Source: Candidatus Omnitrophota bacterium
Lineage (GTDB): Bacteria > Omnitrophota > Gorgyraeia > Zapsychrales > JANLHA01
Length of the DNA: 58,220 bases
Direction: 5' to 3'
Assembly (NCBI GenBank): GCA_023247795.1
Contig: JAHFFT010000010.1
Location: 1 to 58,220, forward strand
Shown: in pieces, positions 1 through 58,220 of the stretch
How positions within the stretch are numbered: position 1 is the first letter of the stretch
Layout: every line of letters begins with the position of its first letter
The notes under the pieces: model-generated
Told to the model about the DNA's origin: nothing
Seen by the model: the letters and a program-made list of their open reading frames with translations, nothing else
The model's database searches: none
Position numbers and translations under genes: made by a program

Positions 1-43
1 CAATCTCCAAAAGCTAACGGCTCCTCTTACCAAACCCATTCTC

Positions 44-106
44 GTGGGGGCCATGGCTTTAATGCTTGGCCTGGCCATCGTTTCCGTTGGTGGAAAGGCG
101 CTTGCC
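44..106 (+). other. Signal-peptide-like hydrophobic N-terminus of gene 1
   Basis: MGAMALMLGLAIVSVGGKALA is a hydrophobic core ending in an A-L-A cleavage-type motif. Lys residues lie just upstream in the still-open frame. Confidence 0.5.
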
Positions 107-3100
107 CCGATGCCCGTGTCTATTGCTCCTGTAACGGCTGTTCAAAAAAATGCGGCTGTCGCGGATTTGGTTAAAATCATTGCCGCAGAGAATATGCAGA
201 CACCCGTTTCAGAATGGAGAGTCCAGGAAGCCTGGCGGATGTTAGAGTCCTTGCCGCCTTCTGATTACGGCATATATTTTGTCGATGATTTATCTTCAAA
301 GATGGGGGATGCAGCCGGTGAGTTTAGACGAGGAGTTGTTCTGGATTCAGGAATTGTCCTGATTGAAAAAAGCCTTGATCCAATAGAGCGAAAATATACC
401 TATGTGGATTTGATGACTCGGCAGGCGCTGGAAAGCATTGACAATGATTCCTATATGATAGGGGACACCTCCGCCGCCCTGCGATACGCATCAGGGGAAA
501 AGCTGGTGGATGCCGCCTTGAAAAATGATGCCGTTGATTGGAACGGGCTTGCCGCTTTCTTAGGGAGAACCCCATCTGATGGACAAATGACAGAAGCTCT
601 TAAATATATTCTGCTGAAAGGTGCGCTGGCGTGGCGTATCGAATATGAGGAACGAAGCGCGCAGGGCGAGATCACGCCTGAAGAAGAGACTTTTCTTAAA
701 ACCTTGCAGTCATACCTAAACAGTTTGGCCGTTCGTGATCTTTATACCGAAATGCGGGCAGTGCTTGCGGAACATCAGTTCATAAGTCCGGATTTACTGC
801 GGTCCATTGACAGCGCGGGGCCAACCGCGGATACCGTTGAAGAATTGACCCAGCCGAGCAATACAGCGAATTCTTTAACAGCGCATGATCCAAGCGGCGG
901 TCTCGCCGCTATTTTTGGCGCGCTTTTCGGCCTTTTGCCATTGATCGGAAGAATGAGCCGCTCGGATGAAGTCAGCAAAGACCGCATCGAACGGTATAAA
1001 CGGGCCGTAGCAGAACTTCGATTTCTGCGCGGTGATTGGGCCGGAGGAAATCGAGAGTTTCTCGAATTTTTCAAGAAAGAGGCGCAAACAACGGATAGTA
1101 CGATCCAAAGACTGCTTTCCCAACAAGATCAAGCTGTCTTGGCGATATTTAGCATCCCAACGAACCAACGCTCACGTCTCAAACAGTCTCTGAGGTCGAC
1201 CATCATCGAGATTATGCAAAGGGAGTTCAAGGCCATCATCGCCGCTGGAGGTTCACTGCATTTTGACTTAACCAACCTGAGGACTGGAGATATTCAAGAT
1301 GATCAACAGTGGTCATACAACTTTGATATTGATATCGAATTCAGCGCTCTTATAGAAGATCCGGAAATTTTTAATTCACCTAATACGCACTTTTATCACA
1401 GCGGAAGAGATAGTACCGCGTCTGTGAGGGAGGGTATACTTGCCCTCAGGAATAATCCGCTTCAAGAAGGAGAGGAAGCCGGAAAGAGGAAGCCCGGCAT
1501 GGTGGGGAGTGGCAGGGGAAAAAGAAAAGTTGTGATTTCACCTGATGACCAAGAAAAGGCGCGCGAAGCTTTGGAGGAATTCATCACGAAATACACAACG
1601 CCTGGTGATCCAATCTCAAGAGCATTTGGTATTCAACTTACTAAAAACGAAGCGCAACAAATTTATAGAATGCGCAAAGGAACCATTGGCGCATTGCCCA
1701 GGCCATTGGCTGAAAAACTTGTTGGGGCTGTTAGGGCTAAAATCAATGACGAAGAACTAGAAAAAAACTGGATTGACCGGCTTGTCGCGTTCGTCGCAAC
1801 CCATCACTATCCTGGCGATGGCCAGATCCTGTATGAATTCATCACCTATGTCATGGACGAAACAGAGCCGATTAATCATTTTGGAAAACAGTTTGGTTTT
1901 AGTCTAAATATTCTTTATGACTATCTCTGGGCCCGCCGGACCTTCGACCAATCACCGGAGACGGAAATTTATCTGCAAAGGCTGCTGGATCTTAGCAAAA
2001 CACCAGAAGACCACGCCCATTGGTTAGCGCGCTTCCATAAATCAGACGTATCCGCAGGTAACATCAGCCGCGGGTTTACCGCTGAAGAAGACGTTCAAAT
2101 ACGCCGGGATAATGAAAAGAACAGCGCCCAGGTGAAAGCCGCGGAAGAAGCCAAGCCTGATGATGACAATATGGTTAAGCTGATTGCGCAAAGAAGGAAG
2201 AATTTGCTGGAGAAGTACGCGCATGATATCCGTCTTGAGCTTGAGCATGCCCACGTGTCAGAAGAAGATATTGTAAAGGTAGGCGCCTTGTTAAGCGAGA
2301 TGCCTGCTTTCTGGGCAAATTCACGGGTGGAAGGGGAAGAGAGGTTCTGGCTGGGCAATGAGAGCGCTCGGGCCGTGGATGTTCTGCGGTTTTTAAAGAC
2401 GCGCGAGGAAACGGGTGATGTTAAAAATTTGGTGGAAGAGTATGATCTCCATGAAATCTTGCATAATACGCCGTTAACCCATGAACAGATTATCACGATA
2501 ACCAATAAAATTTTTAGACGTAACGATACGAATCCTTTGGGGCAGGCATTGCGCGGGTTCATTACTTTAAGCCAGCTCAGGTCTTCTCCTTCCGGCCTGC
2601 ACAATGCCGTAAACGTAATTAACCTTCTCGCCAAGAGAGAGGCTTTGGGTGTCTCATTAAGCGCGGATCAAGAAGAAATGCTGACGAGCCTGACTCAAGC
2701 TCTTAATTCCCTGCCTTCATCTGGCGATTTCTTCCAATATGGCGCGGTGTTTATGTCGCGGGAAGGAATGAATGCCATGCTTAAGAGATTGCCGGATTTA
2801 CGGCAGTCGCTTCCTGAAACCGAGCCGCGCAGTTTCACTCTTAAAAGTGGCCTGATGATTTTTAGTGATTACGCGGATATCTTCGTGATCCCAGAGGGAA
2901 TGGAATCTCCTTTGCGGAATAGTATTCGAAATAGGCTTCAACGTGACGGGGTTTTAGGATTTGCGACTTACGATCCGCCCGCGCCAGAGATACGCGACGA
3001 ATACCGACTCATCTTGCGTGAGTCCAGATATCGTCGGGAAGTTTTCTACGGCGTTTTTAGTCGTGTACTGGAGGATAACCCGGACCTATGGAGCGCGGTC

Positions 3101-6100
3101 CTTCTGAATCGTACGGATCCCTCGTGGTGGACGCGTTTAGCGGATTCGGTGAATATCGCGGTGAACGGCCATTCCATCACGGAACAAGATATCGAAGGCG
3201 ATACTCATCAGGCTCTCCGCATAAGAATTTTACGCGAGGTCATCACTCAACACGAAGAAGCGTATTTATTGGCTCTCGCGCAAGTCACGAGTAGCTACAC
3301 AAGATATCCGGAATTAAATACCATTCTTGACGAAGGAAGGGTTATGACTGAGTTCATGGTGGCGATACATCGAATGGCCATTGACCATCATTTGATTGAC
3401 GGTGAAATCATCGAGGCGGTGGGTTCAGGGAATGATGAAATAACGGCAGGGAGTTATTTGACTTTAATCGCAAGACTTTACGCCATAGCGGAATGGTACG
3501 CCGCTAGTGAATCATTAGGTGCAAATTCTCCAGAAGGTTATTTCCCATTAACTCTGTATACAGATCAAGGAGCTCAAGGCATTTATTATGTGTTTCAGTT
3601 GCTTCAAGTGTATAGGGATGTCTTGGGAATTCCAGAGACGGCGTTTCAAAATTCGCCTGAAATTTTAGCGCGAGCGCTTAACCGTATTCTGCGCGAGATT
3701 AACGGACCGGATACGGTCGACCTCTATCAACCCCAGCGATTACCCTTTGATAAGTTCCATGACACTATCCGCTTTTTTTCTCAGGAATATCAACGTAGTG
3801 GAAATATCGATGCCTATTCAGGTTTATCAGGACTTCTTAAACTTGCCCAAGAGCTGGGGGGAGTTCATTTAGGAGACCTTGTTAATGCGTTCAAAGATGA
3901 TCTGGTGATCAAGAATTTGTGGGGTGTTTCCGATTTGGACTGGCCAACCATCAATCTTTCTTACAATGCCTTCGTGAATGGCGAAGTCAGCACCCAGCAA
4001 ATGCTGGTATTGATATCTTATTTGCAAAATGATCGCCCGAACATTCGGCAGAAAGCGTTCTTGTCCTTGCTTCGTTTTATTGAAAACGCGGATGATTCCA
4101 CACCCGCCAATCGAGAGTTGATAGCCACGGCGATCCGCGCGGTGAATGACGCGCGGCAATCATTTGCACTTGCCAACGCTCCAAAATTTTCCGTTAGCGC
4201 AAAAGTCCTTTCTCGATTTGCTCAAGTGCTTTTGCCTTCCTGGACTGGAGAGAGACAATTAGATGCAATCGCTTTAGGCGCAGGAGTAACGTTGATAGAT
4301 GAGTCCTTAGAAGGTGGCCCAGCGGAGTTCTTAGAAGAAGGCCCATTAAAAGACGCGCTTTTTCAAGCAGAGATTAGCCATATTTTTAACCATATTGCCG
4401 GGTCCGATGTCATTACAAGTGATTATGTTCTTTCTCATTTTAAGTCTCCAGGAAATTCAGGGCAAGAGCTCGTCAGTGAATCCCTGGCTTTTATTGACAG
4501 CGAAGGAAATTGGCAGGCCTTGGCCGATCACGCTGGATTAAAGGAGCCGAAGAGTAGAAATGAAAAGTTAGCGGTGCTCAGCGCGGCGATAGCCAGGAGC
4601 TTATGGCTGAGTGATAATTTCATCAATGGCCATTGGACAGAAGAGGAAAGAAAAGAATTCATGGCATTATCTTATAGTTTGAATATTACGCGTTCTACTT
4701 TGAATGTTTTGTCTTTCCTTGTTGAAGAAATTAGGGAACGCAAAGCACAGAATATTATTCTTAAGCCTTATCAAGTCGGGGCCGTGCCTATCGGCCAGCC
4801 ATGGTCCCTAGAAACGGTCAGTGAGTCCCAGGCGAGTTATACGCGCGCGGGGGCAGTGTCCGCAGCTTTGGCGGGGGCTGTCAAAGATCTTCGTGTGGGT
4901 GAGCACGCTTTATTTTTAGGCGACACACCCGGATCTCGTTTGACTAAGGAAGATATGGCTGATCTAAAGAGTCAGTTACCACCAGATGCTGCCCAAGGCG
5001 CTGAGCACGCTTGGGAATTGAAAAAGGGAGAGGAAATTTTCCGCTATACTTTTGTCGCAAGGAAAATCGGCGCCACTACCCTTTGGGTCGAGGCCAATTC
5101 AGGATACGAGCCGGGCGGCGTACATGATTCTCTATTGCAGGATGCCTGGGTTCAAATAGCGAAGGAAGGGCTTGATCCTTCGGCGGCTCTTGTTCGGTTT
5201 CAGAGTGCTCACATTATCAGCAAGGTTCTTCATACCAATGGCCGGGTTGAAGTGGTTGATCTTTTGGCTGGAAATCCCGCGCAAGATGGTTTTCTTTTTT
5301 ATCACAAGTCCCTGGATGAAAAGTTGAATGAATTGAACGCGCGTGTGCGGCCAGGGTTAGACGGAGGATTAGGCGGAGGCGATATCTTCCGTCAGGTTCT
5401 GGACGAGCATGAACCGTGGCATGAAGTGCTAGGCCGGGATACTCCGCAAGCAGAAGAAGAGCGTGTTCAAATGGATATCCAGAGATTGATCGAGCTTGCC
5501 AGGCAAAATAAAATTGAAATCATCAAGTTAGCGAATGCCCTTGCGGATACCGGTATGGTGACCCAAAGATTTAAGGACCGCCTGATGACGAGCGGATTTG
5601 AAGCTTTAAGCAAGGAAGAGCCAGCGTATATTGGCGAGCTTCATAGGGCGATCCTTGCTGTGTTGGGTAACGGGAATGTCACTGAAGAAAAACTCACCGC
5701 GCTTATTCCAGTCGTGGCAAGGCGGATTATAGAAGAGGGCGTATTGACGATGGATGGGATCGGAGATTTGGGGAAGGTGGATTCTGTTCTTCTCGCGCTT
5801 GACGCTTATGGCTACGGGAACAGGATCCTATTTTCTATCATGGGCCAGCGTCTGCAGGATTTGCTTGCGTATGTCGGCGCTATTAAGGCAAATTATTTCA
5901 CGCTTGCGCAGTCAACAGCGTCCCCTCCTGCTTTGATAAATGCCGGTTACGAACTCGCGTATTCTGTTTCGAGAGGTCTTATCACCCGCGCAACAGCAAA
6001 GGATCGGGTAGCGGAAATAATTTCGCATCTGCTCACGAAATATAAGCTTTCCGAAGACGACAGACAGATTCTTGAAGGCTTACTTGATCCCCGGCGGCCT

Positions 6101-9100
6101 AACACGATTGATGATTGGCCTGAGAATATTACGGGAAAAGTTTTGATAGAAGAACTTGACATACTGCTACCGCATTTTTTCCAAATAGAGGGACCGGAGG
6201 ATGCTAATGGCATAAACAGTTTCGATTTGCCGAACGATGGAATCATATTAAGGATACTTCAGGAGATACGAAAGGAATCTCTGAGTAAAAGGTTGGAGTT
6301 TTCGAATTATCATGACAGTGGTAATGACAGGGTGGGATACGCTTGGGAGCTCGCACTTCTGACAACAGGAGATGTGGTTGTATCGTTTTATCGTACACCA
6401 CTTACAAATAGGGGCATGTATTCACTGTACGGATACGGAGAACCGCGAGAACCGCTGGCCCAGTTTTTACTTTACGATACCACGCGGGGTATTTTAAATA
6501 TGCCTGAGCTTGTTTACAGAATAAATCAGGATCACGATGACAGCGAAAAAGAACCTTGGGAGATCCGTCCTGTGCTGGGTGATGGGGATGTCACTGAGGG
6601 GAAACTCGAAGCGCTTCGTCCAGTCATGGCAGGGATGATCGGAAAAGAGGGCGTATTGACGATGAACGGGATCGAAGATTTGGTGACGGATGATTCCGTT
6701 CTTCTCTGGCTTGCCGCTTATGGTTACACGGGCAGGATCAAGTCTCCTCTGAGCCAGCGTCTGCAGGATGCGCTTGCGTATGGCGATGGTGTTATGGCGA
6801 AGTATAACACACTTGAGCAGTCAACAACAGTGTCCCCTAATTTGCAAGACGCCGGTTACGAACTCGCGTATGCTGTTGAGAAAGGTCTTATTCTACGTAA
6901 AACAGCAACAGAGCGTGGATCGAAAATGATTGCGTATCTGATCGCGAAATATGACCTTTCTGAAAATGACAGAAGGATTCTTAGAGACTTGCTTGATCCC
7001 CTGGTGTCTGGCTGGATCAATGAATCGAATTTAGTTTTTATTTCGCCCACAGAGGAAGAACCGCCCATAAGAGGCAACATCAGCCAGGGATACACGGCCG
7101 ATGAAGAAGCGGCGATCAGGAAAGAAATTATTGCAAATAGCGATCAAGTGCGAAACGCCAATGAAGACGTGGTGGCTCTTGCGGAAGAGCGCAGTCGAGT
7201 ATTCTTAGAGACTTATAAAACCAAGATGGAGGAAGTTTTAAGAAGAAGGATTGCAGAGACGATTAGGGAGGAAGGGTTACCTGACGATCAAATAGAAACC
7301 GAGGTGAATCGGCAAATCGAAACAATGAATTCCATTCTCACAAATCCAAGAGACCTTCTTCACTGGTTTGACTCAAAGGTAGAAGGAGAGGACAAGTTTT
7401 ATCTTGGCAATGAAAGCGCTCGGGCCGTAGACCTGATCCGTTTTTTAAAGGAAGCGGAAGAGCAGGGAGAGATCAAGAATCTCATTGAGCGGTATTTATT
7501 CCACGAAGCCGCGGAGAACACAAGTCTGTCCCACAATGAAATTATTGATGCGGAAGCTGAGATTTTTAATGATCCAGCAGTCGAGAGTCCGGGACAGACT
7601 CTTTTGGGTGTGAAGCTCCGGAAATTTATTGATGAACAAGCGGTTGCGTGGTACTCCAAGCTAGATACTCAAACGATCCGCGAGTCCCAGGCGAGTTATA
7701 CGCGCGCGGGGGCAGTGTCCGCAGCTTTGGCGTGGGCCGTCAAAGATCTTCGTGTGGGTGAGCACGCTCTATTTTTAGGCGACACACCCGAATCCCGTTT
7801 GACTAAGGAAGATATGGCTGATTTAAAGAGTCAGTTACCACAAGATGCTGCTGAAGGCACTGAGCACGCTTGGGAATTGAAAAAGGGAGAGGAAATTTTG
7901 CGCTTTAATTTTGTCGCAAGGAAAATCGGCGCCACTACCCTTTGGGTCGAGGCCAATTCAGGATACGAGCCGGGCGGCGTACATGATTCTCTATTGAAGG
8001 ATGCCTGGGTTCAAATAGCGAAGGAAGGGCTTGATCCTTCGGCGGCTCTTGTTCGGTTTCAGAGTGCTCACATTATCAGCAAGGTTCTTCAAGCCAATGG
8101 CCGGGTTGAGGTGGTTGATCTTTTGGCTGGAAATCCCGCGCAAGATGGTTTTCTTTTTTATCACAAGTCCCTGGATGAAAAGTTGAATGAATTGAACGCG
8201 CGTGTGCGGCCAGGGTTAGACGGAGGATTAGGCGGAGGCGATATCTTCCGTCAGGTTCTGGACGAGCATGAACCGTGGCATGAAGTTCCGGGCCGGGATA
8301 CTCCAGAAGCTGAAGAAGAGCGCGTTCAAATGGATATTCAAAGATTGATCGAACTTGCCCGGCAAAATAAAATTGAAATCATCCCATTAGCGAATGCCCT
8401 TGCGGATACCGGTATGGTGACCCCAGAATTTAAGAACCGCTTGTTAACGAGCGGACTTGAAGCCTTAAGCAATGAAAAGATTGCGGAAATCGATTTATCA
8501 ATTCTTAAGAATTTACTTGATTGGCGTCTTGCGGCACTAGTAGAGTTAGAACAGATTGCCGGAGAAGGCACTTATATCACGACCATGGGTCAAACGGAGT
8601 CAGGATACCTTGTTGTAACGTTTCGCAAGCGGGGTGTAGGTGGTGCGATGATCCAAGTGTACTGGCCAAAATGGGCATCAAGCTCTGACGAGGCTTTTAT
8701 TTTAGATCATGGCCAGATTTATTTTTTAAAGAGCAAGACACCCTCGCCTTTCGCTTCTGCAGGTCTGATGGATCTCGCAGAGCGGGAACCTCAGTTTCAG
8801 GCTTTACGAGACTTCCTGCCGGATTTACGGGTCGCTTTGCAGCGACAATTGGATAAGACGCAAGTCGTTTTAAATCAAGAGCCCGAGGAAGTTCGTGCCC
8901 TGCTTGCGCCTATGCTCAATGCATTACTGAATGAGTTCCGAGGAGCGTTCAATCGCCCTGAAGCCATCCCCACCGCGATGAGGCGGCTCGCCCTGCTTGA
9001 AATACAAATGCGGCATTTTGCCAAACTGATACGGGAGCGTATATCAGCCGGAGAAGGGCTTGAGCTTAAAAAGATAGAAAATCCCCAGGGAGACAGGATT

Positions 9101-12100
9101 AATCTATCGGGTAAGCAGTTTAGGATCCATCCGACTGTGATGCAAGAGGTGAAAACCATGTTTCGCGTCCAGAGGCCCAATGCTGCTGAGATTACGGCTG
9201 TTCTTTTAGTGCGCTATAATCCCTACGATTCAAGCGGGCTTCCGCAGGTGTTGACCATTTCTGGGGACGCGACCGATCCTGCCGTTTTTTTCGTTAACGG
9301 ACAGAGGACAGAGTTAACTAAGGTGAATGAAATCGAAGACGATGACGTACAGCTTTTTGTGACGACGACGAAGGACAACGTGACGTATGACCGCGACGGC
9401 CGTATCGAAATTTCGCGCGTCCGATTTGTCATAACACCTCGAAATCACGCAGAAAACTTCCGAAACGATTTTCGTTTTCAAATAAGCGGAGTGGTGGATG
9501 CGGGCGGCTTTAGCGCTAAGCGTCCTAGCGGCATTTCCATATGGACTGCCGATGGCAGTTTTGTGTCACGGATTGTGATTGAGCCAAGGCAGGACAACCG
9601 TCAAGTGATTACCATCAATGGCACAAAGTATTCATTCGATGCGCTGCCATTAAGACCGACCATCCGGCTGTTTGATTTTATCCCGCAGCTTGCCGACCGG
9701 CTTGTCATGAGTGAACCTCTCGCCATCACTCAGAAGGGAATGGTATTCGCCCGCGGTCTTAAATTTCAAGTATTGCCCGATAACGTTGATTTTAACCAAA
9801 TAAAGGATAGGTTAGAGGCTAGATTATATTGGAAGGTTGATCGACCGGAGCACATTGAAATCAGAGATAAAGCGAATAATGTTCTTCTTGCCCGTATTGA
9901 TTTTCGTGGCAGCAAAGTTGTATTGGTAAACTCGGGCGAAGAAGTCATCTTGATAGAAAGCGACACTGGTCAGAAAAATTTTGTAGTTTATCCCTATAGT
10001 CCGGAATTATTATCATGGATAAAACAATTTGTGGCCTCAGTCTCGACAGATCCCATTACGAATATGAACGGTGTTGTTAACCTTGGCGATCATAGATTTC
10101 GCATTTATCCTGCCCTATCAGGCATTGAAACAGAAGAAGAGACTGCATTCAGAGCCTATTTAAACCAACGAATTTTAATCGAGTCTAAGCCGCTAATAGG
10201 CAGCCTTGGGAATGTTGAACACACGCTTATGCTAGGGGATCAAATGATGCTGCGCATCTCGCTTTTGCAGCGTGGTAAAGTGAGGATTGAAGCGGGGGCT
10301 TTGGAAACGGACGAGGAACCTATTACGCAAGAATTGGATCTTCCGGATGCTCGATCGGTCATTGATTTACTCAACTTAATTCCTCTTTACAAACAGCACA
10401 TCGATCAGCTTCGGCAGGAATTCCAAATCAACCAGGAATTTTCGACGGAAGAAGACGCAGCAGAAATCCCCTCCCAAATCGGCAATGATTCTTTTGTAAG
10501 TGGGATTGTTTTGGATGAAAACGCAAAACCTCAAACAGCCAAGATGAAAGATAAAGTAGGAAATCCACTTTCTGATTTAAAACTTACGGAAGCCGGCAAT
10601 TTTGATGTCCAGGCTGGTTTAGACGTTCTCAAAGAACAACTTGAGTATCCTGAAAATTCCGACCATCAAGCCATCTTGAACGGACTTAAGAATTTTGCTC
10701 CTCAGCATGGACTGCCTGAATATACAGTTGATCCACAACCTGAACACGGAAATTTCACGGCTCACGTTCCAGAAAATCTCGACATCTTGATTGCGCATGT
10801 TGGTCTTGACAGTCTTCCCACCGAACTCAAAGCATTGGTATTTTCTTTCCATGAAGAAGGCCACCGGCAGGCTGACCGTAAGAATTTGACCCTGATCCCC
10901 GTTGAAGCAGGAGAGGGAGGGCCTGCGATAACAGTTCAATTCCAAAATCAAGATCCAATCAATCTGAAACTCACCCAAGCGAATGCGATTAGGATTTTTG
11001 AGAAATACCGAACGGCCAAAGAACAAGGTCTCGATCCCAATCACTATCTTCTTTGGGCCATGGCAGAAGAGATGTTTCCCAGGCTTGATCAAAAGCTGAC
11101 GCAAACCCTAACTCAAATCACCGATGGCCATCATTTCAAAACCATTCGGGAAGCCGCAGGACTTGACCAAGAAGAGCTTGCCTTTCAAGTAGGAATATCT
11201 TCTCCGTTCCTTTACCAAATCGAGCGGGGCATTTATCCTATCACCCTCTCACTTCGCTTGCGTCTTACAACTGCTCTTTTACCTCATTTAGGCAATGATC
11301 TCAAAGCTCAAACATGGCTGGTGAGCCGGTTTAACGAGGAGTTCACTCAAACTCCTCGTGTGAGTTTATCAATTCCACCCCAGGAAATTTCCCAAGCTAA
11401 AGAGTGGCTTAAATCTGATGAGGCAAAAAAAGTTCTGCCCCAAGATCTTCAAACACTCTCACTCTTTCAATCCGCTTTGGACTCTCATCCGGCAACTATG
11501 GATGAGGTTTTGGATTTGAACACACTTTCAGATGGCCAAAAGCTCCTTGGGATTCGTTGGATACTGAATTTGACTCAAAGAGGTCTTGCCCGCACAGCGG
11601 GAATATCTTACTCGCTTATCAGCCAAATCGAGCAAGACAATAGGCCTATCACCCTCTCAACCCGCTTGCGTCTTACGATTGCCCTTTTACCTCATTTAGG
11701 CGAGTATCCCAGAGCTCAAGATTGGCTTCTTGATGGGTTAAGTAGCGCCATCCCTCTAGCATCAGACAGTCAACTTTCCGCTGCCGCCCAAGGTATTGAG
11801 ACGGCACAAGCTTTCCTGAATTCAGTCACCGAAGACGTGTTGAGTCAAGATCGGATAGCGCAATTAAATCTCATTCTGAAAAGAATCGAAGAAAAGATAT
11901 TTTATTTGTCCGGCGGAATCCAAGAATTGCATAGATTGTTGACCTCTGCATCGGGAGCCGACCGTCAAGTGGCGGCAAATCGCATTCTGAATCTGGATCG
12001 AAACGATGGGGAGTTGCTGGATGGAGTTATCAATTTGCTTAATCAAGTGACCCATGATGCGAGCTTAGCGCAAGACATTCGTGACCACGCGCAAAGTGTG

Positions 12101-17443: not shown

Positions 17444-17660
17444 ACCCAACTTCGACAGTTTGCTTCAAGAATTTTTGTAATAGTTCAGCCCTTCTGTGCA
17501 ACTGATACATCGTTTACATTTTACTCATCCCATCGGAGGGGGCAGTACTATGACATCGATTGTCTATTATTTTTTTGACGTTTTTCAAGTGGTCTCTTTG
17601 GAGCGTCTGGGAACGCGTCCTTCTAGAGTTTGCCGGTCTTGAAGAGTCCGGGTGAAATTT

Positions 17661-17699
17661 ATAGTTCTCATTGACAATGAGAACTATTGATGTTATCCT
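17661..17699 (+). promoter_or_regulatory. Sigma70-like promoter overlapped by a 27-bp palindromic operator, upstream of the ATPase gene
   Basis: ATAGTTCTCATT-GAC-AATGAGAACTAT (17661-17687) has perfect 12-bp inverted arms. TTGACA (17671-17676) sits in its centre. A 17-nt spacer leads to an extended -10 TGtTATCCT (17691-17699). Confidence 0.5.
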
Positions 17700-17730
17700 C
17701 TCATTTAGAATGAGAAGAAAGGAGGCTGCG

Positions 17731-19008: not shown

Positions 19009-19041
19009 AAAAGTTCACAATCCTGCAATCCGGGGCTCCGA

Positions 19042-46500: not shown

Positions 46501-49500
46501 AATCTTTGCCGGCGGGACTGATGACCCCGGCTAAACTCCTTGCCGGAGGCCTTCTTGGCTATGGCGCGTTTCAAACAGATAATCCTTATGAAAGAATTCT
46601 TTACGGAATTGGAGCGTTTGGAGCGTTGGGTTCTCTGGGGACAGGTGCCCTGGCGAGTCTTGCTAATCTTGTTCCCGGCGGATATTTTGGCGACGCGGAA
46701 CTATTATCACTCATGACGATACCGGCATGGGCGACCACAGCGGGCAAGTTTGCTCTTCCTGCCGCCTCATTGTTAGGAGGCGCGTATTTAGGAACGGATT
46801 ATTTACTCAATTATGAGGACCGCAATTTTAGTCAGGCGCTAGGCGCTGTTGCTTTACTTGCCATAGGCGCTATCGGTGGGGCCGGAGCATTGGCAGGTAC
46901 TGGGTTAGGCACGAGATTGTTTGGTCCGGGCGCCCAATTAGCGCAGCAATTCAATTCGATCGTTACGGTTGGCGAGGCGCTTTCGATGGCCGGTGCCGCG
47001 ACAGCTCAAGGTCTTTTGATTTCACCAAAGCTTTATGGATTGAGCAATTTTATTGTTAATCCCTTGTTCAATTTTGCTGAGCGGGCGGGAATTTATCACC
47101 CGACCTATAGCTATCTCGGTCAATCTTATCAAGGCGAGGAACTCTTGCAGTTATACAGCCGGCTTAATCCCAGTCAATTGAGTCAGGTAAGACCAGGCAG
47201 CTTTTTAACATCGATACAACAAAATATGCTGGGTTCGGCGCAGGGTGATTTGCAGTCGATCATGTTTACGACGGCTTTTGGCGCGCCATTTTCTTTTCTT
47301 ACCAAATTTGGTCTTGAGCCCGTTATCAATGGCGGCCTTGCCGGTCTCGCCGGGAATTATAGAAATTACGCGCTGTTCGCTGATCGGATCAGGAATGTTT
47401 ATAACACCTTCGCCGGTGGATCACTGGGTCTGGAATGGATTGGTGAGAATGTTCTAAAAAATGCTCCAGCGGAGTTTCGAGAATTTTTCCGTATTGTTGC
47501 CTCCGGGGTCGATGAGTGGGTTGTGGAAGACTATGCTTCGAAGCTGGCAACATCGATTGGGTTGCCAGATTTCATTTCTGAACAACTGGCAGAAATTTTA
47601 AGTTCGGGGGTGGAATACAATGCTGGTTATCAGTATCAGAATTTTTCTAATGTGATTATTGGTTCCGCCAATTTGGGAGACATTTCGAGAAGCGGTTACA
47701 CGGTTATTGGCCCAACCGGACAAATCAACACGCTGCAATTCCAACAATATTTAGTGGATCGTTTCGATATTTCTGATGAATTGGCCAGTCGTTTCGCGCA
47801 GAGCACGTTTTTGGCTGATGCGTTTATGACGGCCGTGTCAGGCGGACAATTCAGTTTGGTCGATTTGAACCAGTCCATCGTGGAAAACCTGCTTCTCACC
47901 CAAGCCATGGGGCAGATTTTAACAGCCGGGTCAGTGACCAACAGCATATTTCAGGGATTGGATTTTGGGCAGGGGCAAACGGCGCCAGTGACCAGAGAGG
48001 TCATTGAGGATTTCTTGACCGATACGTTAAAAGTGACGGTGCCAACACCGACACTGGATCTGATTTATTTTGCGTTGAGCGGTATCAGCACTTTGAATCC
48101 CAGTCAGCGAACGGCCTTGGCCAATGCCATTAGGATTTATGGGTTGGATATCGCGGCAGAACAGAGCGGGGAAACCAATGTACCACCAGCGGAAAAATTT
48201 GCCGCCTACACCCAACTGCAGGCGCTGATCCCAGTGCCGTTTGGCTGGGATCCAACAGAGGTTGTAAGACCACCGTCGCAGTTGACCGGACAAGCGAAAC
48301 TGGAAATGCGTGATCCAGGACGTCCAGCGGAATTGAACATTTACGTTCAGGGCGGACAGCGTATTACCGTGCAAGTGGACAACCCAGCTACATTTCAAGC
48401 TGTTTATACGCAATTGGCCGCCCAGGGTGGGCGCATGGAATTTGTCCAAAATGGCGGCGCGCAGATCCGTATTCTTAGCACGGCAGGAAATCCGATTTTA
48501 ACCGGCACGTTGGTTTTACCGACGGGAGTTGCTTTGGCGGATATCATACTCAATTTGGATATCCAGACCGGGACTTATTTGGATGTGCCGAACGCTTTTA
48601 AACAAGCTGTTGTTCAGGGGATTCAGCAAACCGCGCTCGAATACAGCAATGATTTGGCGGAACAGACAGAAGGGCTGGCCGAAAGTGCCGTCCGAAATCT
48701 GCAGATCGCGCCATTTTTGATTCAGAGCACCATGACCAAAGCGCTCAAGCTCGCTGATCTGCTGAAAAGAGGATCTTTGGGAACCGAAGCCCGGCAGATC
48801 CGGTTCGATCTCGAGAAGATTCTTTTGGCCGTTACTCCGCTGCTGAATGAAGATGCCATTTTGAATTCAATGGACCAGGAAATAAAAGCGGATGTCTTGT
48901 TTATGGTCATGGCATTGAATGACGCGATCAAGAATTCGGCAAATCGGAAATTGTTGAATGAAACTAAAACGATTTTTGACAATTTGTTGAGTCTTGGTGA
49001 ATATTCCTATGAACAGTTGGTGATGGTTAAAGACCTGCTGGCTGGACAGTGGAACGGCAGGTCCTTTGTTGAAAGTTTCAATTTGTTCAGATCATTTAGA
49101 TTAGAAGAAGATCCAGCCTTTGCGGCTAAAATGATTGGGTCAACTGTTACAAAAAATGATAGGAGGTCGATTTTTACCGCGATTGATGCTGCGAGGAGCA
49201 GGCCCGGAGGAACGACTTCTCTTGCCCAAATTCCTCGAGAGGGTTTTGATCATTTGCAAGATGCCGTTGCTGATTACATCGGTGGCAGCACAGTTCTAAT
49301 GGGAGAAGAGAGACAGGTCATCCTCGATGCCGCGCGAGGAAAACCCATTACGACAATGAAGGGCGCAACGATTGCGGATCCTTACCGGGTGGAATTGATT
49401 CAGGTGGATTTGGGTGATCAGAAGACCCATAGGATGGCCGAAGGCTCTAAATGGCCTGGACCTGTGGCTGTTAGACGTCTGGAACTTGACGATAACAATT

Positions 49501-52500
49501 CAATTGTCTTGCGCGTTTATGTGACAAAAGCACGGATGGGAGATGCTTTAAATAGCGATGATATGATCACTCTCGCTGAAGAAATCAAGCATGAGCTGGA
49601 TGAAGGGGTGTTGGGCAAGTCGCATCCAGAGGCGGTCTTAAGAGAGATTGATTTGGAAAATGGCGACCATGAGGAGATGCTTTCGTTGGCCACTAAGTAT
49701 CGTATGCGATTATTATCTCCAGAAAATTTGATTGATTTGATTGAAGGCACAGCAAATAAACACACTGAAAACTACAAGTTACACGCGAATGGATTGATCG
49801 ATAAACAGACCTATTTACGCCTTGTCCAACATACCATTGCTATTTTTGAGGAAGCAATCGTATTGCTGGAAAATGAGCAATTCCTTGCTTCGTTGGCATT
49901 GAGACAAGCCAATGCTTTTGTTTCCATATTGAAATCTTCGAACAAGGATCAGCTTGCTGAGTATTTTAAAACTTGGGAAATCCCTAGGTATGGTCCGATT
50001 GAGATGCGTTTATTTTGTTTGATTATTGCTATGAGTATTGATAGTACTAACCTGGATAAGATTATTAGTGTTGTCTTAAGTGGAGAAATTTCATCAGCAC
50101 AAAAGGATCGTCTTTCGGATTTTGTCATACAGGTATTAAATTCACGAAATAGTATCATTAGTCAGAACATGAAGTCTCCAGGAACTACGATTGAGTCGGC
50201 AGACAAAGGCGCGAGGAATAGCGATGTGAATTTAGCGAGAAACAATAATAGAGTAAAGACTTTAGGGAATGACAATAAATTTGCCGATGGCACAACAGTC
50301 TTGGAGAAAACGGCAAGTATCATCGAAGCCATGCAGCCTCCGGTTGGTTTGTCCGGTGAAGCGCTTGAAAGATTTAATCGAGAAAGAGATTTTCAGACGC
50401 AGGTGCTGCGGCAAGGGAATTATAAGATTGGGAGTAAGATCATTCAGCAGTTCAAAATTGAAGTGGTTGATCTCGAAGGTCGGGAGGCCTTTTCCGTCAT
50501 TAGTGATCAATCACAAGGCCGTGGGACAGGAATATTTTGGCAGGGAGAAAAAGATGGGTTCGTTCATATTTATATCACCAAAGCTTATTTGGAGCGTCTC
50601 ATTCGTCTGAATCAGCCGGTTATCCTTGCTGAAGTATTTAAACATGAGTTGGACCAAGCCATATTTGGTTACCGGCCGATCCAGACTGTGGCCCGGGAAA
50701 TCGATTTGGAACCCGGCGCTGACCACGCGCTTTCACTGGCCACCAAAGACCTTTTGTATCAAAGGATGGGGCAAACTCCAATCCAGTATATCGTCTACCT
50801 CTCCGGCCTCATTGACAATACTGAAACCAAAAAACAAGAAATCCGTAACGCTTATACGGCAGGAAATCTTACCGTCCAAGAACGCGACCGGCTTTTGGCC
50901 ATGGCCGATGAGGTCAAGGCCGAGGCCAATCATATTCTCAACATTTCCGGTCCTTTAGAAGTGACGCGCGACGCGAATGGCCGGGTCAATTTTATTCACT
51001 ACACCGATTCTTCAAATCCTCTTCAAGTGATAAAAGGATCGATTGTTCCGAAGTACGACGCGGCAGGTAAGCTCATCGATCTTGAAGGGACGATTCCTGA
51101 TTCCATACTCGATTATCTTTTCGCGAACGCGAACAATGTGATTTTGTGGGGCGCAAATGCGCAAGGGGTTTTAGCGGTGCTTCAGGCGAAATCCAGACCT
51201 AACCATACTGCTGAAGTGGTTGGAACGCATCCCTTCTTAGTTAATCTTTTTGATGGGACAGCGAAACAAAGGCTTTATGTGGCAGATGTTCATGGAGTTG
51301 TGAGGCCGTCTGTTTTCTCTAAGCCCAGTCAGGGACTCTTTAATTTATTAAACAGAGTGAGCAGCTCGCATTTTAATGAAGTGATGGATGCCGCTACGGG
51401 AATCATCCAGAGCGTCACTAACGAAAGAGTGGGGGATGCAGAAGTTTATGCCTATTTGATTTCTCACAGTCGTGAGCAGGTATTAGGTTTGTCTTCACGT
51501 GCATCTGCCACAGACTTTCGGTATTTATTAGAATTAAAAGATGCAATGGATTCTGTTGGAATGTTAAGCGGCAATCAATTAAATCAAGCCGCCATGAGTT
51601 ATTTGAGTGGTTTGGATACTTCCTACGAAATTTTACGCGCGCATGTCAATCAAGTCATCAGAAATTCGGGATCAAGTTCTGTGATTAGTAACGTTCAGGA
51701 AATTGTTCAGCTTAATCTTTGGGGCGTTGACGATGGACTGGAAACCAAAGTGTTTCAAGTGGAAGTTTTTCTAAGAGATGGCAGACGCGTGCAGTTTGCT
51801 TTGAATGTAGCGCGCGATACCACAACTTCTTCAAGCGATGTTAAAACGACATCCCAATTTATGCGTTCAAACTATGAATTAAATGAAGGTGGTCTTGCAG
51901 AAGTTTTTTCAGAGTCATCCGCTGTTGCAGTTGCGACTTTAAGTGGTCCTCAGAACGTTCAAGTGATGGCCGGCGCCTGGCTTGAAAATAGCAGAAAACT
52001 TAAAATTAAGGCGAATACCGGGCCTTTATTTTATGCGGTCGAACCAAACTCAAATAGAGAAATACCTATAAGCCGCGCGGAATCAAATACGATATGGTCC
52101 CAAATTGTCAGATTGATGACACTTAATTCTTCCATCGAATCATCCACGGGATCAGCTTTTGTTGTTTTCACTGACATTGCCCGCAATGACTATGTTCAAA
52201 TGGGAAATGGGGATATTCGCCTTACGTGGAGCGATGGTGTTCAAAAGGTCAGCGACCCAGCCCTTATTTTAGCGCGTGGTCTGCTTGTCCACACAACCGT
52301 TGTGCGTGATGGGACAGCAGAGCTCGCGAACGTTTATTGGGATGAGCCGGGACTTGCCATTCAGGCGATTGAAAGTGGATTTCTGCAACGGGCGCGCCGC
52401 CAGGCCCAATTAGAAGGACGGAGCGTTGCTGACGCGGAACGCGACGCACGAATCCAGTTGAATAATTTATGGGAACAGGCCTATACAAGGACACTTCCTT

Positions 52501-55500
52501 CGCTGCTGACCCTAACACAAGACGCTCGAACAATCGCGGTCATCCAGCGCGTGCGTGAAGCAGTTGGAAACCACTTACCATTGTCATCGGCCTTTTCTTC
52601 TAGGAGTCTTAACACGGCGTTGGGGCTTAACAATATTTTAGCCCATCCGGATGTGGTTATTGAAGCAGATGCAATCAGAGCAGATGGGACCAGAGTTGTG
52701 AGTATTCGTCTTCCGGCACGGCAGGTTGTCGATGCCGATCAGGTTCCACAAGGTTTGGCATTTTTACAATATGAACTTGCCAACACAACACAATTTGATC
52801 TTCTCTACAATGCCAAAGGCGATCTCATTGCCGCGCTCCCCCGTGTGTCTTCTAGGGATGAATTTTTAAATGAGATTGCTCCTAAACCCGGAGTCAATCC
52901 CCGGTATTTGAATCTGAGTTATTATAATTTTAAAGTTCCTGATTTGGGCGATCCCGCGGCCGTTGCCAAATGGACCAATTTTGCCAATGAGCGGCACGCG
53001 GACCAACAACGAATTGACAGTTATATAGCAAGTCGCTTTGGGTCTTTAGGTGTAACAATTCAGGGGCTTGATGCCAAATATGATCCTGTCTCTGGAAACT
53101 ATATACGGAAGAAAGAATATGTTTATGCTGAGATTGATAAGACAACGGGTCAGGTCGCTATTAAGGAAATCGATCTTGATTCTCCGGACCTTGTTAATCA
53201 GGTTTCCAAAACGCTTGATCCAAACAAACATCAGATCATTCTTCCGGTGTTCCCTACCATTTATTCGCCGGGAGAACAAGTTAACTTTGTCAGCGATAGC
53301 AGGTATCAGACCGCGATTTTTAATCAAATGGGCATTGCGGCGAATCACGACGTTCTGATGGTTGGTCCGGGAACAGGTTTGGATGTTTGGATTGCCTCGC
53401 GAAAAACAAATAAGCCGATCAATGTTATCGGTATTAATCCCTTGGAAATGGCCAATCTCGCGGTCACCGCGGCACTTGGGGGATTTCAAGTCCACGCGGT
53501 GTTAGGAAATAATATCATTCGAGAAGACGGAACGCTGGTCATTGGGGGAAAACGGTTTGATAGGGTCATTTGGAATTTGCCTTCTTATGATCCTGGTCCG
53601 CCCCCGGGGATTGTTGAGAAAAGACAGTTTGCTGAAGAAGGTCTAAATCCCGACGATATTTTTCAAAAGATGATTGAGAACGGTTGGGCAAGGCAAGTCA
53701 GTCCAACCGAGGTGCTATTGACAGTTAATTTAGTCGATCAAGCAGCTAATATGGCAAATGTTTTTGGTCCCCAATTCCCGGCCATTTTGACTATTTTACA
53801 AGCGTCTCATCCGAATGATCCTGTTCTGCTTACGGAACGACATGACCATGATTTCGAGGGAAGGATCCTGAGGCGTTTTGCTCAAGGGCTTCCGAGTGTC
53901 CTTAATGCGGATGGTCTCGCGCTCATTTGGAACATTCGGGTGTTGAGAAAGGGAATTATTTCGAAAAATCAAATTGAAGAAGCCGGGCTTGATGTCAACG
54001 AAGTTTTTCAAAAACTGGTGGAAAATGGATATGTCCAAACAATAAGCCCAACCCACGTGGAGTTAACTGACTTTTTAGGCCAAGAAGACCAGCGTAATCT
54101 GGAAAATATTTTTGGTCCCCAATTCACAACACTTTGGCCTATTTTGCGAAGCGCCCAAAATGTCATAGGCAGAAATGTGGTTAGTGAGATTTTGCGTTCA
54201 GCGGGAAAATCCGATGGTTTTACCGACGTCGCGCCCGGGGACGTTGTCTTCGATGTTGGTTTTACGCAGCGAAGGCTTTATTTTATCAAATTCACGGCAA
54301 ATGGTTCGAGTAGGAATGAATTTGTGAATGAAGGGGCCCTCGGCTTAGGGACAGCTTTTAATGAAATCAGCAATATTACGACCCAGGCAATGTCATCGGA
54401 GAAGGCCGGTCAAGTCACCGCGGCGATTGGTCAATTGGAAACTGCGGCCCAAGATCCGAAAATGACCGATGAGGAAAGAGCGTTGGTGATGCGGGTCGTG
54501 GTCAAACTCCGGGAACTGCACGCTGCTGGACGCATCCAAGATTTTAACGCCCTCATCCGTGACAGCGATGATTATCTGTTGGCCTTTTTCCGATCAACCA
54601 ATGGCGGTGTCATTGGGTTGTCGGATAATTTTACCGATTTGGCCAGGGTGTTGTTGAGGGAAGGGCTGATCGCGATCGGAGCATCAACGAATTATGAACA
54701 GCATCGATTTTATTATGAAACCTTGCAGGCAAAACTTTTAGGTAGGGGAACAGAGTTTCGTCTCGAGACCAGGACCAACATTGAACAGCCACTTTTTAAC
54801 GATCCGGTCAATGGCCTCGCTCATGCCCAGGCGTTTGTGAATCATTTTGATTATCCCTTGCAAGATAAACTCGATGTGCTTTTACGTCTCATCGATCTAG
54901 GGAATACTGATCCGGCTTATCAAGCCGCGGCAGCGAATGCCTTGGCGGTTTTGGCCGTTTGCTTGAATCAATGGCGGTCGTCAGTCAGTGCTGCCGATGG
55001 GCATCTTTCCGACGAGAGCGAACTCTTTTTGGATCAATGCATCATGAGGCTGATCAATGCTGGTATCAATGAAGTCCCTGGAGTCATGAGGTTTGATCCC
55101 GAGACTGGAGATTTGATTCTCTATGGTCCGGACGGTCAAGCTTTGTCGCAAGCCGAGGAAGAAGAATTTATCGGCGCAACACTGCTTGCCCGCAACACCC
55201 GCGCGACGGGAACGGTGCCTGCGGCGCTGAAAACTTTGCCAGGCTTGGCCCAAGGCCGGGTGGTTTTGACGACGGGTGACACAGCCGATTCGCAAATTAA
55301 CCTTAACGCACTGCGAACGCAAGTCGATCAGAAGCTTGCCGCCAGCGGTGGTAAAGGCCCCATCACGTTAGATTTGCCCGGTGGAAAACAGGAAACATTT
55401 GCTTTGCAAACCATCAATGGGATCAAGGTTCTTGTTCCGGTGAATACGTCACTTTCCGATGGGGCGCTGGCGGCTATCTCAGAAAAAGTTTTAGCGCGAG

Positions 55501-58220: not shown

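Follow-up and report, generated by a model that had tools for sequence, protein, structure and literature searches.

The 58,220-nucleotide (nt) contig JAHFFT010000010.1 of assembly GCA_023247795.1 (Candidatus Omnitrophota bacterium), analyzed here as a whole and referred to as the window, is nearly filled by two giant open reading frames (ORFs) pointing in the same direction: gene 1, with 5,799 codons, and gene 2, with at least 12,911. Embedded in gene 2 is a compact cassette of three parts: a domain with the fold of the C39 peptidases, in which a conserved serine takes the position of the catalytic cysteine and the histidine is retained; a motif resembling the double-glycine leaders of C39 substrates; and a glycine-zipper tract rich in Gly, Ala and Ser. 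The locus probably combines a surface giant of an Omnitrophota bacterium (gene 2), in which the cassette serves as an internal site of processing and anchoring, with a membrane-tethered, cytoplasmic gene 1 protein.

How might such a protein work? In the scheme that we favor, gene 2 would be exported by means of its Sec signal peptide, and its first ~7,000 amino acids (aa) would form an extracellular array (Ig-like barrels, cadherin-like, YD, LamG and malectin modules) binding, most plausibly, surface glycans or proteins of a partner or prey. The cassette, at aa 6,949-7,700, would be the point at which the protein is processed and anchored. Cleavage behind the GG-type motif (GA/G, 7255-7257), which the Ser/His domain could perform in cis, or a peptidase of the type found in peptidase-containing ABC transporters (PCATs) in trans, would detach the adhesive N-terminal part from the C-terminal remainder, and the new glycine-zipper N-terminus, a hydrophobic tract of ~250 aa, would insert into a membrane. 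The remaining 5,400+ aa would comprise a second Gly-rich cluster and otherwise unrecognizable modules. Gene 1, for its part, would be held by one or two N-terminal transmembrane (TM) segments and lie mainly in the cytoplasm, its duplicated blocks carrying two XRE-type helix-turn-helix (HTH) modules and two CheR-like S-adenosylmethionine (SAM)-dependent methyltransferases.

The C39-fold cassette of gene 2

A papain-fold, C39-like unit in gene 2 had been suspected from inspection of the DNA and its translations without database searches (the "sequence-only reading" in what follows), and the unit is there. Pfam Peptidase_C39 matches aa 7175-7226 (22.4 bits against a cutoff of 22); among the matches of a family profile are an ABC bacteriocin transporter, through its C39 domain (7n87, E 1e-5), CdiA toxins of papain-like fold and HlyB, through its C39-like domain (CLD); and hhalign aligns the family with ComA of Streptococcus pneumoniae (whose peptidase domain is identical to PDB 8hf4) and with ComA of S. 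mutans at a probability of 90%. An AlphaFold2 (AF2) model built on an 11-sequence alignment (predicted local distance difference test, pLDDT, 81; predicted template-modeling score, pTM, 0.80) retrieves C39 structures in Foldseek at TM-scores ranging from 0.5 to 0.66: StbD-CT on top, LahT150 with its leader peptide (6mpz) and a Vibrio C39-like domain (3b79) at 0.65-0.66, and also ComA and the HlyB CLD.

The register of the ComA alignment, SAYDSLLVMLG in gene 2 against CGVASLAMVFG, sets Ser7078 (nt 40719-40721) on the catalytic Cys17, in the nucleophile position; the conserved histidine is His7186 (nt 41043-41045). In the AF2 model a helix begins at Arg7077/Ser7078, and His7186 opens a strand. 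Gene 2 has no cysteine between aa ~1600 and 10000, hence none in this domain, which consequently does not count as a cysteine peptidase and instead combines the C39 fold with a Ser/His pair that is conserved. The family alignment has an invariant HFGxSA, an invariant histidine in GHFvTVT and an F..W.G signature, and ~16 residues after the histidine there is an acidic partner (D/E at the aligned TFKD, TVVD or TLLE position). Serine and histidine are kept in every relative that covers these positions (22-44% identity), including the more distant P0007, which reads HFAESA.

The leader-like motif comes next. Most relatives read K.LSxxEMxxTxGG, or a close variant, ~60 residues past the histidine; the consensus for C39 cleavage is LSxxELxxIxGG. 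The strict leader consensus occurs six times in the 17,427 aa of the relatives against an expectation of 0.15 (~40-fold), and each occurrence lies 53-68 residues after the histidine. The AF2 model of gene 2 has a pLDDT of 93 for aa 7239-7248, just before the motif, and of 78 across it. (A side observation: P0001, P0002, P0003 and P0008 have a cysteine right after the GG-type motif, GG/C, though they are otherwise poor in cysteine, and a cut behind the motif would leave these relatives with an N-terminal cysteine; gene 2 has Gly-Leu.) The third part, glycine-zipper cluster 1, is kept in P0001, P0002, P0003, P0007 and P0008. It is one of the two glycine-zipper membrane clusters that the sequence-only reading had proposed, both of which exist as Gly-rich hydrophobic clusters and together contain five uncharged TM-grade segments. 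(A note on method: TM segments in both giants were called by a simple hydropathy scan, and their number and topology are therefore predictions.)

Relatives of the cassette are few. An exhaustive phmmer search with gene 2 aa 6951-8150 against 1.84 billion representative proteins returned 15 matches with E <1e-3, 14 of them on aa 6952-7500, and by this count the cassette is rare; scans of metagenome contigs with an alignment of the cassette, and with the N-terminus of gene 1, yielded no match for either. Among the relatives, one is annotated as Omnitrophica and one is labeled by its source as a double-glycine peptidase. Two are particularly informative. P0002 (7,239 aa) is collinear with gene 2 aa 4018-9581, the collinearity extending over aa 9166-9581, just past the second Gly-rich cluster. 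P0007 (locus L004, 10001-21010; GCA_964430735.1, CAYSFB010000002.1) is complete at 3,669 aa and consists of a signal peptide, RHS repeats, an ILEI domain, the Ser-C39/GG/glycine-zipper cassette and a tail of ~770 aa. It is encoded among housekeeping genes, with a Tricorn-like beta-propeller gene directly downstream and no neighbor resembling gene 1, and provides an ordinary-sized, polymorphic-toxin-like model of the gene 2 cassette. The sequence of parts, lectin/YD modules followed by the cassette and a dark C-terminal half, is the same in P0002 and P0007 as in gene 2; the order that had been read from the DNA at the outset (YD repeats, C39-fold unit, Gly-rich cluster) is thus real.

(A further note concerns the locus L006 (JGI 3300041079, Ga0452214_004906), in which an ortholog of gene 2 has been called as two ORFs, of at least 1,296 aa and then 7,239 aa. 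A natural split of the gene was considered and rejected: tblastn homology crosses the stop codon of the first ORF in the frame of P0002, so that this is one gene with a single apparent frameshift at nt ~3885, which may be an assembly error, a pseudogene or an instance of recoding. The L006 ortholog ends ~3,570 aa past the conserved serine; gene 2 runs on for at least 5,837 aa.)

The two giants and the gene between them

Are ORFs of this size genes at all? The frame of gene 1 (+2) has no stop from base 2 to 17440, the earliest start codon being GTG 44; that of gene 2 (+3) has none from ATG 19488 through the last base, where the window ends and truncates it. No other frame stays free of stops for more than 447 codons. 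Two co-directional giants filling ~96% of the window (96.4%, as measured) are what the sequence-only reading had described. Contigs from other assemblies cover parts of the same ground. JAHFGM010000011.1, of GCA_023247435.1, encodes the exact product of the small middle gene, as read from ATG 17731, and has 99.9% DNA identity with window positions 7731..19680; JAHFFS010000001.1, retrieved from GTDB species representatives by a scan with the last 1,000 aa of gene 2, and titled "MAG: Candidatus Omnitrophota bacterium isolate nzgw298" (MAG, metagenome-assembled genome), is 98.5% identical to positions 45224..55867 (10.6 kb) and ends inside gene 2. In nzgw298 the frame of gene 2 is open over all 3,548 codons covered, with 84 synonymous and 59 non-synonymous codon differences and 103 of the 163 base differences at third positions. 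Both giant frames are real genes, far beyond chance, because the frames are intact in other assemblies, because substitutions favor third positions and because cysteine codons are excluded from these frames specifically (see below). One might still argue that the long frames are an artefact, namely an assembly chimera or a stretch of non-coding or pseudogenized DNA, given that giant ORFs of MAGs are often fragmented or mis-assembled and that the related locus L006 has its one apparent frameshift. Against two independent assemblies that agree at 98.5-99.9% with frames intact, the third-position bias of their differences, the frame-specific exclusion of cysteine codons and the Pfam and NCBIfam domains that sit in frame along both ORFs, that argument is scarcely credible.

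These identities identify the window as a chromosome fragment of a Candidatus Omnitrophota species shared with two MAGs from New Zealand groundwater, nzgw298 and GCA_023247435.1 (nzgw being the label of a series of studies on aquifers of that country), and the link to Omnitrophota that the sequence-only reading had made on grounds of layout is upheld by the 98.5% DNA identity to a contig so titled. The public contigs of this species break in or beside the giants (the contig of GCA_023247435.1 extends over ~3657-19680, and that of nzgw298 ends at 55867), with the consequence that the giants are fragmented, and annotated as partial proteins, in public records. Tandem Repeats Finder and Rfam detected no tandem DNA repeats and no Rfam elements in the window.

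The exclusion of cysteine is extreme. In-frame TGY codons number 0 in gene 1, where 84 are expected, and 10 in gene 2, where 210 are expected (expectations being computed from position-specific base composition); the two off-frames have 148-560. Cysteine accordingly makes up 0 of 5,799 aa in gene 1 and 10 of 12,911 aa in gene 2. P0007 (0.05%) and P0002 (0.29%) are also low; the 20 ordinary genes around P0007 average 1.03%. Low cysteine content is a long-known trait of secreted bacterial proteins, chiefly those that cross the outer membrane unfolded, and its exclusion from gene 2 fits export. Neither of two papers on the giant genes of Omnitrophota (West-Roberts et al. 2023, bioRxiv 10.1101/2023.11.21.568195; Nielsen & Lui 2026, bioRxiv 10.64898/2026.06.07.730766) mentions the phenomenon, which could become a simple sequence marker for the fate of giant proteins.

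Gene 2 begins with a convincing signal peptide, MYSFRTPRGYKPHTRILAGLIIFFFISNELFRSVAFA followed by NP, with a predicted cut after AFA. The Ig, cadherin, LamG and malectin-like adhesin modules that the sequence-only reading had recognized in gene 2 are recovered in its N-terminal half by Pfam and NCBIfam (see the table). Its YD repeats are real as well: in addition to the Pfam and TIGR01643 matches, a two-sequence profile of aa 3257-3738 matches the PDB chains of Rhs (7q97, E 1e-6), teneurin-like proteins, Tse5 and YenC2. What finds no support is the notion that these repeats form a "shell": they are few, spread thinly across ~1,900 aa with LamG in between, and have more than 7,000 aa behind them; the RHS-associated core (TIGR03696) is missing, and the aspartyl-autoprotease pair DPxGL...DPxGL of RHS proteins is represented by a single DPLGF. 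Glycosidase-like toroids, which had also been proposed for gene 2, were not confirmed by Pfam, NCBIfam or PDB searches, and the same searches found no glycoside-hydrolase or other lytic domain, which leaves the idea of an attack on cell walls unsupported. Kinase-like and methyltransferase signals are likewise lacking in gene 2 (Pfam, NCBIfam, PDB phmmer, motif scans). From aa 7,700 on, gene 2 is essentially dark, and phmmer searches of PDB sequences with the entire gene 1 and gene 2 proteins gave nothing useful. (The run at aa 7780-8060 is made up of ~5 repeats, TVITSPGQKVTITTAFDGETV, that are 53-62% identical as protein and have no tandem repeat at the DNA level.)

Gene 1 presents a problem of topology. 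The signal peptides that the sequence-only reading had assigned to both giants are not equivalent: that of gene 2 stands, and that of gene 1 is not established, its frame being open to the edge of the window, with no charged n-region and no ribosome-binding site found before either GTG 44 or ATG 53. Hydrophobic segment 1 can be read in two ways: as a signal peptide (or signal anchor) of a weak kind, or, should the protein be longer than its visible part, as a TM segment in its interior. TM segment 2 has K/R residues only after it, and the positive-inside rule would place the remaining ~5,500 aa in the producer's own cytoplasm, tethered at the N-terminus by one TM segment or two. The cytoplasm is where modules of the HTH and methyltransferase kinds are normally active. 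The supposition that such modules behind a secretion signal must be effectors destined for another cell had arisen from a paradox that the predicted cytoplasmic topology would remove, and gene 1 as a train of secreted effectors is not supported.

The HTH and CheR-like methyltransferase modules themselves are confirmed by Pfam and by sequence motifs, two of each; the C-terminal methyltransferase copy has the motif I ADMGASTG and a CheR-like YDVVRLFNVLRF. Methyltransferases had been claimed for both giants and are found (as Methyltransf_11) in gene 1 and in no library scan of gene 2. The kinase-like modules likewise attributed to both are detected by no library, and scans for GxSxG, for kinase (HRD, DFG, VAIK) and for Walker A motifs gave nothing coherent. 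Outside its two HTH and two methyltransferase modules, gene 1 has no match in Pfam or in phmmer searches of PDB sequences. Its block duplications (4811-5707/7670-8542 and 13244-14404/16340-17440) reach 94.5% DNA identity, and the second pair repeats the C-terminal methyltransferase block through the final ...NQGNLSLAD(S/L)AP.

The only similarity detectable between the two giants is a module of ~250 aa (gene 2 aa 11901-12146; both copies of the first duplicated pair in gene 1). Its AF2 model, from a 3-sequence alignment, is poor (pLDDT 55, pTM 0.42) and found no Foldseek match with a TM-score above 0.15. A zincin reading of the module was dropped, as the HEPWHE of the gene 1 copies is not kept in the copy of gene 2.

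Coordinates of the features of the window (aa numbering is that of each predicted protein)
Feature	Position (nt)	Strand	Remarks
Gene 1, giant ORF	44..17443	+	5,799 codons; frame open from base 2, true start may be upstream of the window
Gene 1 hydrophobic segment 1, aa 3-21	50..106	+	hydropathy 1.84; no charged n-region; no upstream ribosome-binding site
Gene 1 predicted TM segment 2, aa 284-302, SGGLAAIFGALFGLLPLIG	893..949	+	uncharged; 0 K/R before, 5 K/R after
Gene 1 duplicated module, copy 1, aa 1590-1888	4811..5707	+	contains HEPWHE; 91-98% aa identity to copy 2
Gene 1 duplicated module, copy 2, aa 2543-2833	7670..8542	+	also 24% identical to gene 2 aa 11901-12146
Gene 1 XRE-type HTH 1, aa 3699-3736	11138..11251	+	Pfam HTH_3/HTH_31, E 2e-12
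Gene 1 XRE-type HTH 2, aa 3831-3875	11534..11668	+	Pfam HTH_19/HTH_3; paralogous to HTH 1
Gene 1 methyltransferase block, copy 1, aa 4401-4787	13244..14404	+	weak Pfam Methyltransf_11; 63-97% identical to the C-terminal copy
Gene 1 methyltransferase block, copy 2, aa 5433-5799 (C-terminus)	16340..17440	+	Pfam Methyltransf_11, 27.7 bits (cutoff 21.2)
Middle gene, AAA_14 + DUF4143 ATPase, 425 aa	17731..19008	+	Pfam E 8e-38 and 1e-25; PADLOC PDC-S01, E 3.7e-118
Gene 2, giant ORF	19488..58220	+	12,911 codons, open at the window end; frame kept in nzgw298
Gene 2 Sec-type signal peptide, aa 1-38	19488..19601	+	4 basic residues, 11-residue hydrophobic core, AxA site
OmpL47-type beta-barrel / Big_3_2 Ig-like, aa 380-457	20625..20858	+	NCBIfam NF047446, E 3.5e-13; Pfam Big_3_2
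Big_9 (three) + Cadherin_5 (two), aa 1241-1401	23208..23690	+	Pfam E 7e-15, 9e-13; NCBIfam tandem-95 repeat
YD/RHS repeat cluster 1, aa 3629-3665	30372..30482	+	Pfam RHS_repeat, E 9e-11; TIGR01643
YD repeats, aa 4745-4826	33720..33965	+	Pfam, NCBIfam; sole DPxGL-like motif, DPLGF at aa 4755
Laminin_G_3 lectin-like domain, aa 5055-5215	34650..35132	+	Pfam E 1.3e-18
YD repeat, aa 5519-5555	36042..36152	+	TIGR01643, E 2e-7; Pfam
Big_9 / cadherin-like, aa 5750-5813	36735..36926	+	Pfam E 1e-8
Second, partial Laminin_G_3, aa 6030-6086	37575..37745	+	Pfam E 6e-5; paralogous to aa 5161-5244
Malectin-like carbohydrate-binding stretch, aa 6729-6756	39672..39755	+	Pfam E 1.5e-8, 35 bits (cutoff 23)
Cassette part 1: conserved helical region + C39-fold domain, aa 6949-7240	40332..41207	+	Pfam, PDB profile, AF2, Foldseek, hhalign
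Cassette part 2: double-glycine-leader-like motif LTNDVMKETRGA and the following G, aa 7245-7257	41220..41258	+	predicted scissile bond A7256/G7257
Cassette part 3: Gly/Ala/Ser-rich glycine-zipper cluster 1, aa 7257-7500	41256..41987	+	uncharged TM-grade segments 7280-7298, 7386-7404
Run of ~52-aa beta-rich repeats, aa 7780-8060	42825..43667	+	weak relatives P0014, P0019
Gly-rich hydrophobic cluster 2, aa 8860-9140	46065..46907	+	uncharged segments 8936-8954, 9037-9055, 9117-9135
Gene 2 module shared with gene 1, aa 11901-12146	55188..55925	+	BLASTP 24% identity, E 3.6e-7
Weak LolA-like / MucB_RseB-like beta-barrel, aa 12404-12489	56697..56954	+	LolA_like 28.2 bits (cutoff 30); MucB_RseB 25.1 (cutoff 22.3)

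The giants are not an uninterrupted pair: a third gene, which the sequence-only reading had overlooked, lies between them. Its ATPase product matches the PADLOC model PDC-S01 over its full length (401 of the 412 model positions), which makes it a candidate single-gene phage-defense protein of that family. It has a GC content of 0.40 (0.47 for the window), a cysteine content of 0.5%, its own AAGGAGG ribosome-binding site and, upstream, a promoter-like site TTGACA-17-TATCCT; it was probably acquired horizontally and looks like an insertion that is unrelated to the giants and independently expressed. In the AT-rich 480-nt spacer that follows, a second promoter-like site (TTGAAA-16-TAAAAT with an upstream TG, at 19370-19397) precedes the ATG of gene 2 by ~90 nt; a transcript of gene 2 that is separate from that of gene 1 is therefore probable.

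Alternative readings of the locus

The interpretation of gene 2 as a surface giant with an internal processing-and-anchoring cassette, and of gene 1 as a tethered cytoplasmic protein, has to contend with several awkward facts. We know of no precedent for a serine nucleophile in a C39 fold, and Cys-to-Ser mutants of such peptidases are generally poor enzymes; the leader-like motif of gene 2 itself is degenerate (V at -8, T at -4) and is not significant when taken alone; and the total lack of cysteine in gene 1, which is typical of exported proteins, conflicts with a cytoplasmic bulk and keeps an export reading of gene 1 alive. A more committed version of the scheme is offered tentatively, as a possibility that we consider doubtful: that aa 6,949-7,500 constitute a self-cleaving C39-fold peptidase of a new catalytic variety, operating with Ser and His and evolved under exclusion of cysteine; that by cutting its own chain behind the built-in double-glycine leader it frees a bacteriocin-like glycine-zipper head, by which the 5,000+ aa further downstream are driven into a membrane or through it; that the giants are polyproteins with internal processing sites; and that exclusion of cysteine marks those giants, or those parts of them, that are exported.

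Might the C39-fold domain instead be "dead"? It would then be a leader-binding module like the HlyB CLD, docking or chaperoning the hydrophobic tract; the motif would go uncut, or be cut by a separate PCAT/ABC exporter, and gene 2 would be a single polypeptide. The domain does lack cysteine, Cys-to-Ser variants of cysteine peptidases are usually weak, and the HlyB CLD is among both the structural and the sequence matches. West-Roberts et al. also note C39 as a chaperone-like part of type I systems. Conservation tells a different story: all family members, at identities of 22-44%, have retained Ser and His, something unusual in a dead site, and a leader-like motif with small residues at -2/-1 is conserved in cis; nor is an ABC transporter fused to the domain or visible nearby in the window. 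We consider a dead domain quite unlikely.

The most dramatic proposal, and the one that the sequence-only reading had advanced, is that of a self-contained machine for contact-dependent delivery, built on Tc/RHS, MARTX or polymorphic-toxin logic, with gene 2 adhering to a target, breaching its wall, releasing itself by way of the papain-fold unit, inserting its glycine-zipper helices and passing enzyme modules across, and with gene 1 as a train of secreted effectors. Part of this has a factual basis. The order of adhesins, YD repeats, C39-fold unit, Gly-rich cluster and further modules is real and conserved; the complete relative P0007 is polymorphic-toxin-like, with a C-terminal part of ~770 aa after its cassette; releasing peptidases and Tox-PL-C39 domains are known in polymorphic toxins, and StbD-CT cleaves itself; both giants exclude cysteine in the manner of proteins that are exported unfolded; and gene 1 has a module in common with the C-terminal part of gene 2. 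The machinery itself is what fails to appear: library searches turned up no lytic domains (glycosidases included), RTX repeats or C80 cysteine protease domain (CPD), and neither they nor motif scans found kinases; there is no RHS core and no aspartyl-protease motif pair, the YD repeats are sparse, and a "cargo" of more than 5,000 aa cannot fit a cocoon of the Tc type. TM segment 2 and the positive-inside rule direct the bulk of gene 1 to the cytoplasm, no immunity or secretion genes are visible in the window, the giants are set apart by an unrelated ATPase gene that has a promoter-like site to itself, and P0007 has no neighbor like gene 1. Delivery on this plan is, on balance, unlikely. At the opposite extreme, both giants might be nothing but structural proteins of the envelope or surface coat of an ultra-small cell (matrix, spacer or biofilm scaffold), with lectin and Ig modules binding the cell's own envelope or mineral and polymer surroundings, and with no role in attack or feeding. 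Adhesin-type modules are generic, no lytic or toxin domain was found, and most of both giants matches nothing; a passive scaffold, however, leaves the C39/GG/glycine-zipper cassette and the HTH and methyltransferase modules unexplained, and the giant protein of a cultured relative, Velamenicoccus archaeovorus, is strongly expressed when that organism is attached to Methanosaeta (cited in West-Roberts et al. 2023). We regard the scaffold as very improbable.

The main open question posed by the giant genes of Omnitrophota is how chains tens of thousands of residues long are exported and anchored, and perhaps divided into functional pieces. The present locus offers a compact and testable handle on it: a fragment of ~380 residues with a confidently predicted fold, a conserved Ser/His pair, a predicted cut (A7256/G7257) and, next to it, a putatively membrane-active tract. 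Such a fragment could be expressed and assayed without culturing the organism.

Comparison with known systems

The C39 domains of ComA, LahT and PCAT1 have the same fold as the gene 2 unit and the same His-strand and F..W.G signature, and the motif beside the unit resembles the leader consensus of C39 substrates. The differences from PCAT/AMS exporters are nonetheless substantial: the gene 2 unit has an invariant serine, is located inside a giant secreted protein, has its putative substrate motif in cis and downstream, and possesses an extra hydrophobic helix insert and an N-terminal helical extension. No match to ABC_tran or ABC_membrane was found in gene 2.

An experimental precedent is StbD-CT, the C39 toxin of a CdiA-like effector (bioRxiv 10.64898/2026.05.07.723447; PDB 8ssk/8ssm), which cuts itself after an adjacent Gly-Gly, a cut that is needed for delivery. 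It shares with the gene 2 domain residence in a very large surface or delivered protein, and it is both the top Foldseek match and a match of the PDB profile. StbD works with Cys183, constitutes the C-terminal toxin and makes its cut on its own upstream side, whereas the gene 2 domain is internal, has serine, and is followed by its motif, a glycine-zipper tract and more than 5,000 aa.

Polymorphic toxins, whose known components include releasing peptidases and Tox-PL-C39 domains (Zhang et al. 2012, PMC3482391), resemble gene 2 in that their YD repeats precede a peptidase-like unit and a C-terminal part that is variable, and P0007 displays the RHS/polymorphic-toxin layout at ordinary size. Unlike RHS and Tc proteins, gene 2 has no RHS-associated core, no contiguous YD tract of shell length and no small C-terminal toxin, and no immunity gene is seen in the window; a few scattered YD repeats and a "cargo" that would exceed 5,000 aa do not add up to the Tc/RHS logic that had been invoked. 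A likeness to MARTX is likewise not supported: the visible proteins have no match to RtxA, Peptidase_C80 or HemolysinCabind in Pfam or NCBIfam, that is, neither RTX repeats nor a C80 CPD.

The glycine-zipper bacteriocins with double-glycine leaders (class II bacteriocins and microcins; CdzC/D of Caulobacter) are short peptides, exported and cut by a separate PCAT. Gene 2 has in common with them a double-glycine-type motif followed by a Gly/Ala-rich segment that is expected to enter membranes; it differs in that this unit is embedded in a protein at least 12,911 aa long, with a peptidase-like domain fused upstream of it.

It is in its own phylum that gene 2 is most at home. West-Roberts et al. 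(2023) described Omnitrophota giant genes with many TM regions, C39 domains and attachment domains, advanced a hypothesis of predation, and suggested that C39 domains might cut the giant proteins, C39 also being chaperone-like in type I systems. Nielsen & Lui (2026) have since catalogued 916 Omnitrophota proteins of at least 10,000 aa: 94% have a signal peptide or TM segments, 39% have both, a membrane-anchored cytoplasmic architecture is found in 46% of the long proteins, the largest architecture cluster is Peptidase_C39 (24 proteins), and PF08241 and PF13385 are common. The resemblance of this locus to such genes, remarked on in the sequence-only reading, is confirmed in every catalogue trait examined for gene 2: it belongs to the same phylum, exceeds 10,000 aa, has a signal peptide, at least five uncharged hydrophobic segments (gene 1 has two, by the same hydropathy scan) and attachment-type domains. 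Peptidase_C39 and Laminin_G_3 (gene 2) and Methyltransf_11 (gene 1) are recurrent families in the catalogue; and, like other Omnitrophota giants, these proteins are mostly dark, are unique in sequence and contain repeats that are ancient rather than nucleotide-level. Differences are also apparent. Gene 1, with its 5,799 visible codons, is below the 10,000-aa threshold of the catalogue. (The giant genes of West-Roberts et al. are longer than 90 kb; gene 2 runs past the end of the window, and the 38.7 kb seen of it are a lower bound. Type II secretion, pilus or carbohydrate-import genes, expected near giants of that kind, would lie in flanking DNA, of which the window has none.) Over the visible 18,710 aa, Pfam and NCBIfam found no SecA DEAD-like domain (PF07517) or other SecA match, and no GT, GH, NUDIX, dockerin or TSP3 domain, so that the Archaeovorin repertoire is represented solely by the methyltransferases of gene 1 and the C39-like unit of gene 2; the visible part of gene 2 is neither of the Archaeovorin nor of the Dockerin type. 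Its C39-fold unit lies ~7,100 aa from the N-terminus rather than beside the signal peptide, and has serine in place of cysteine.

Giant genes of this type, then, are already catalogued in Omnitrophota, and the locus adds another example that, as such, would not surprise a specialist. What appears to be new in relation to the published giant-gene papers is the coupling in cis of a Ser-for-Cys C39 fold to a double-glycine-type motif and a glycine zipper, together with the rarity of this cassette and the exclusion of cysteine; it is the cassette that adds a concrete handle on how giant proteins may be processed.

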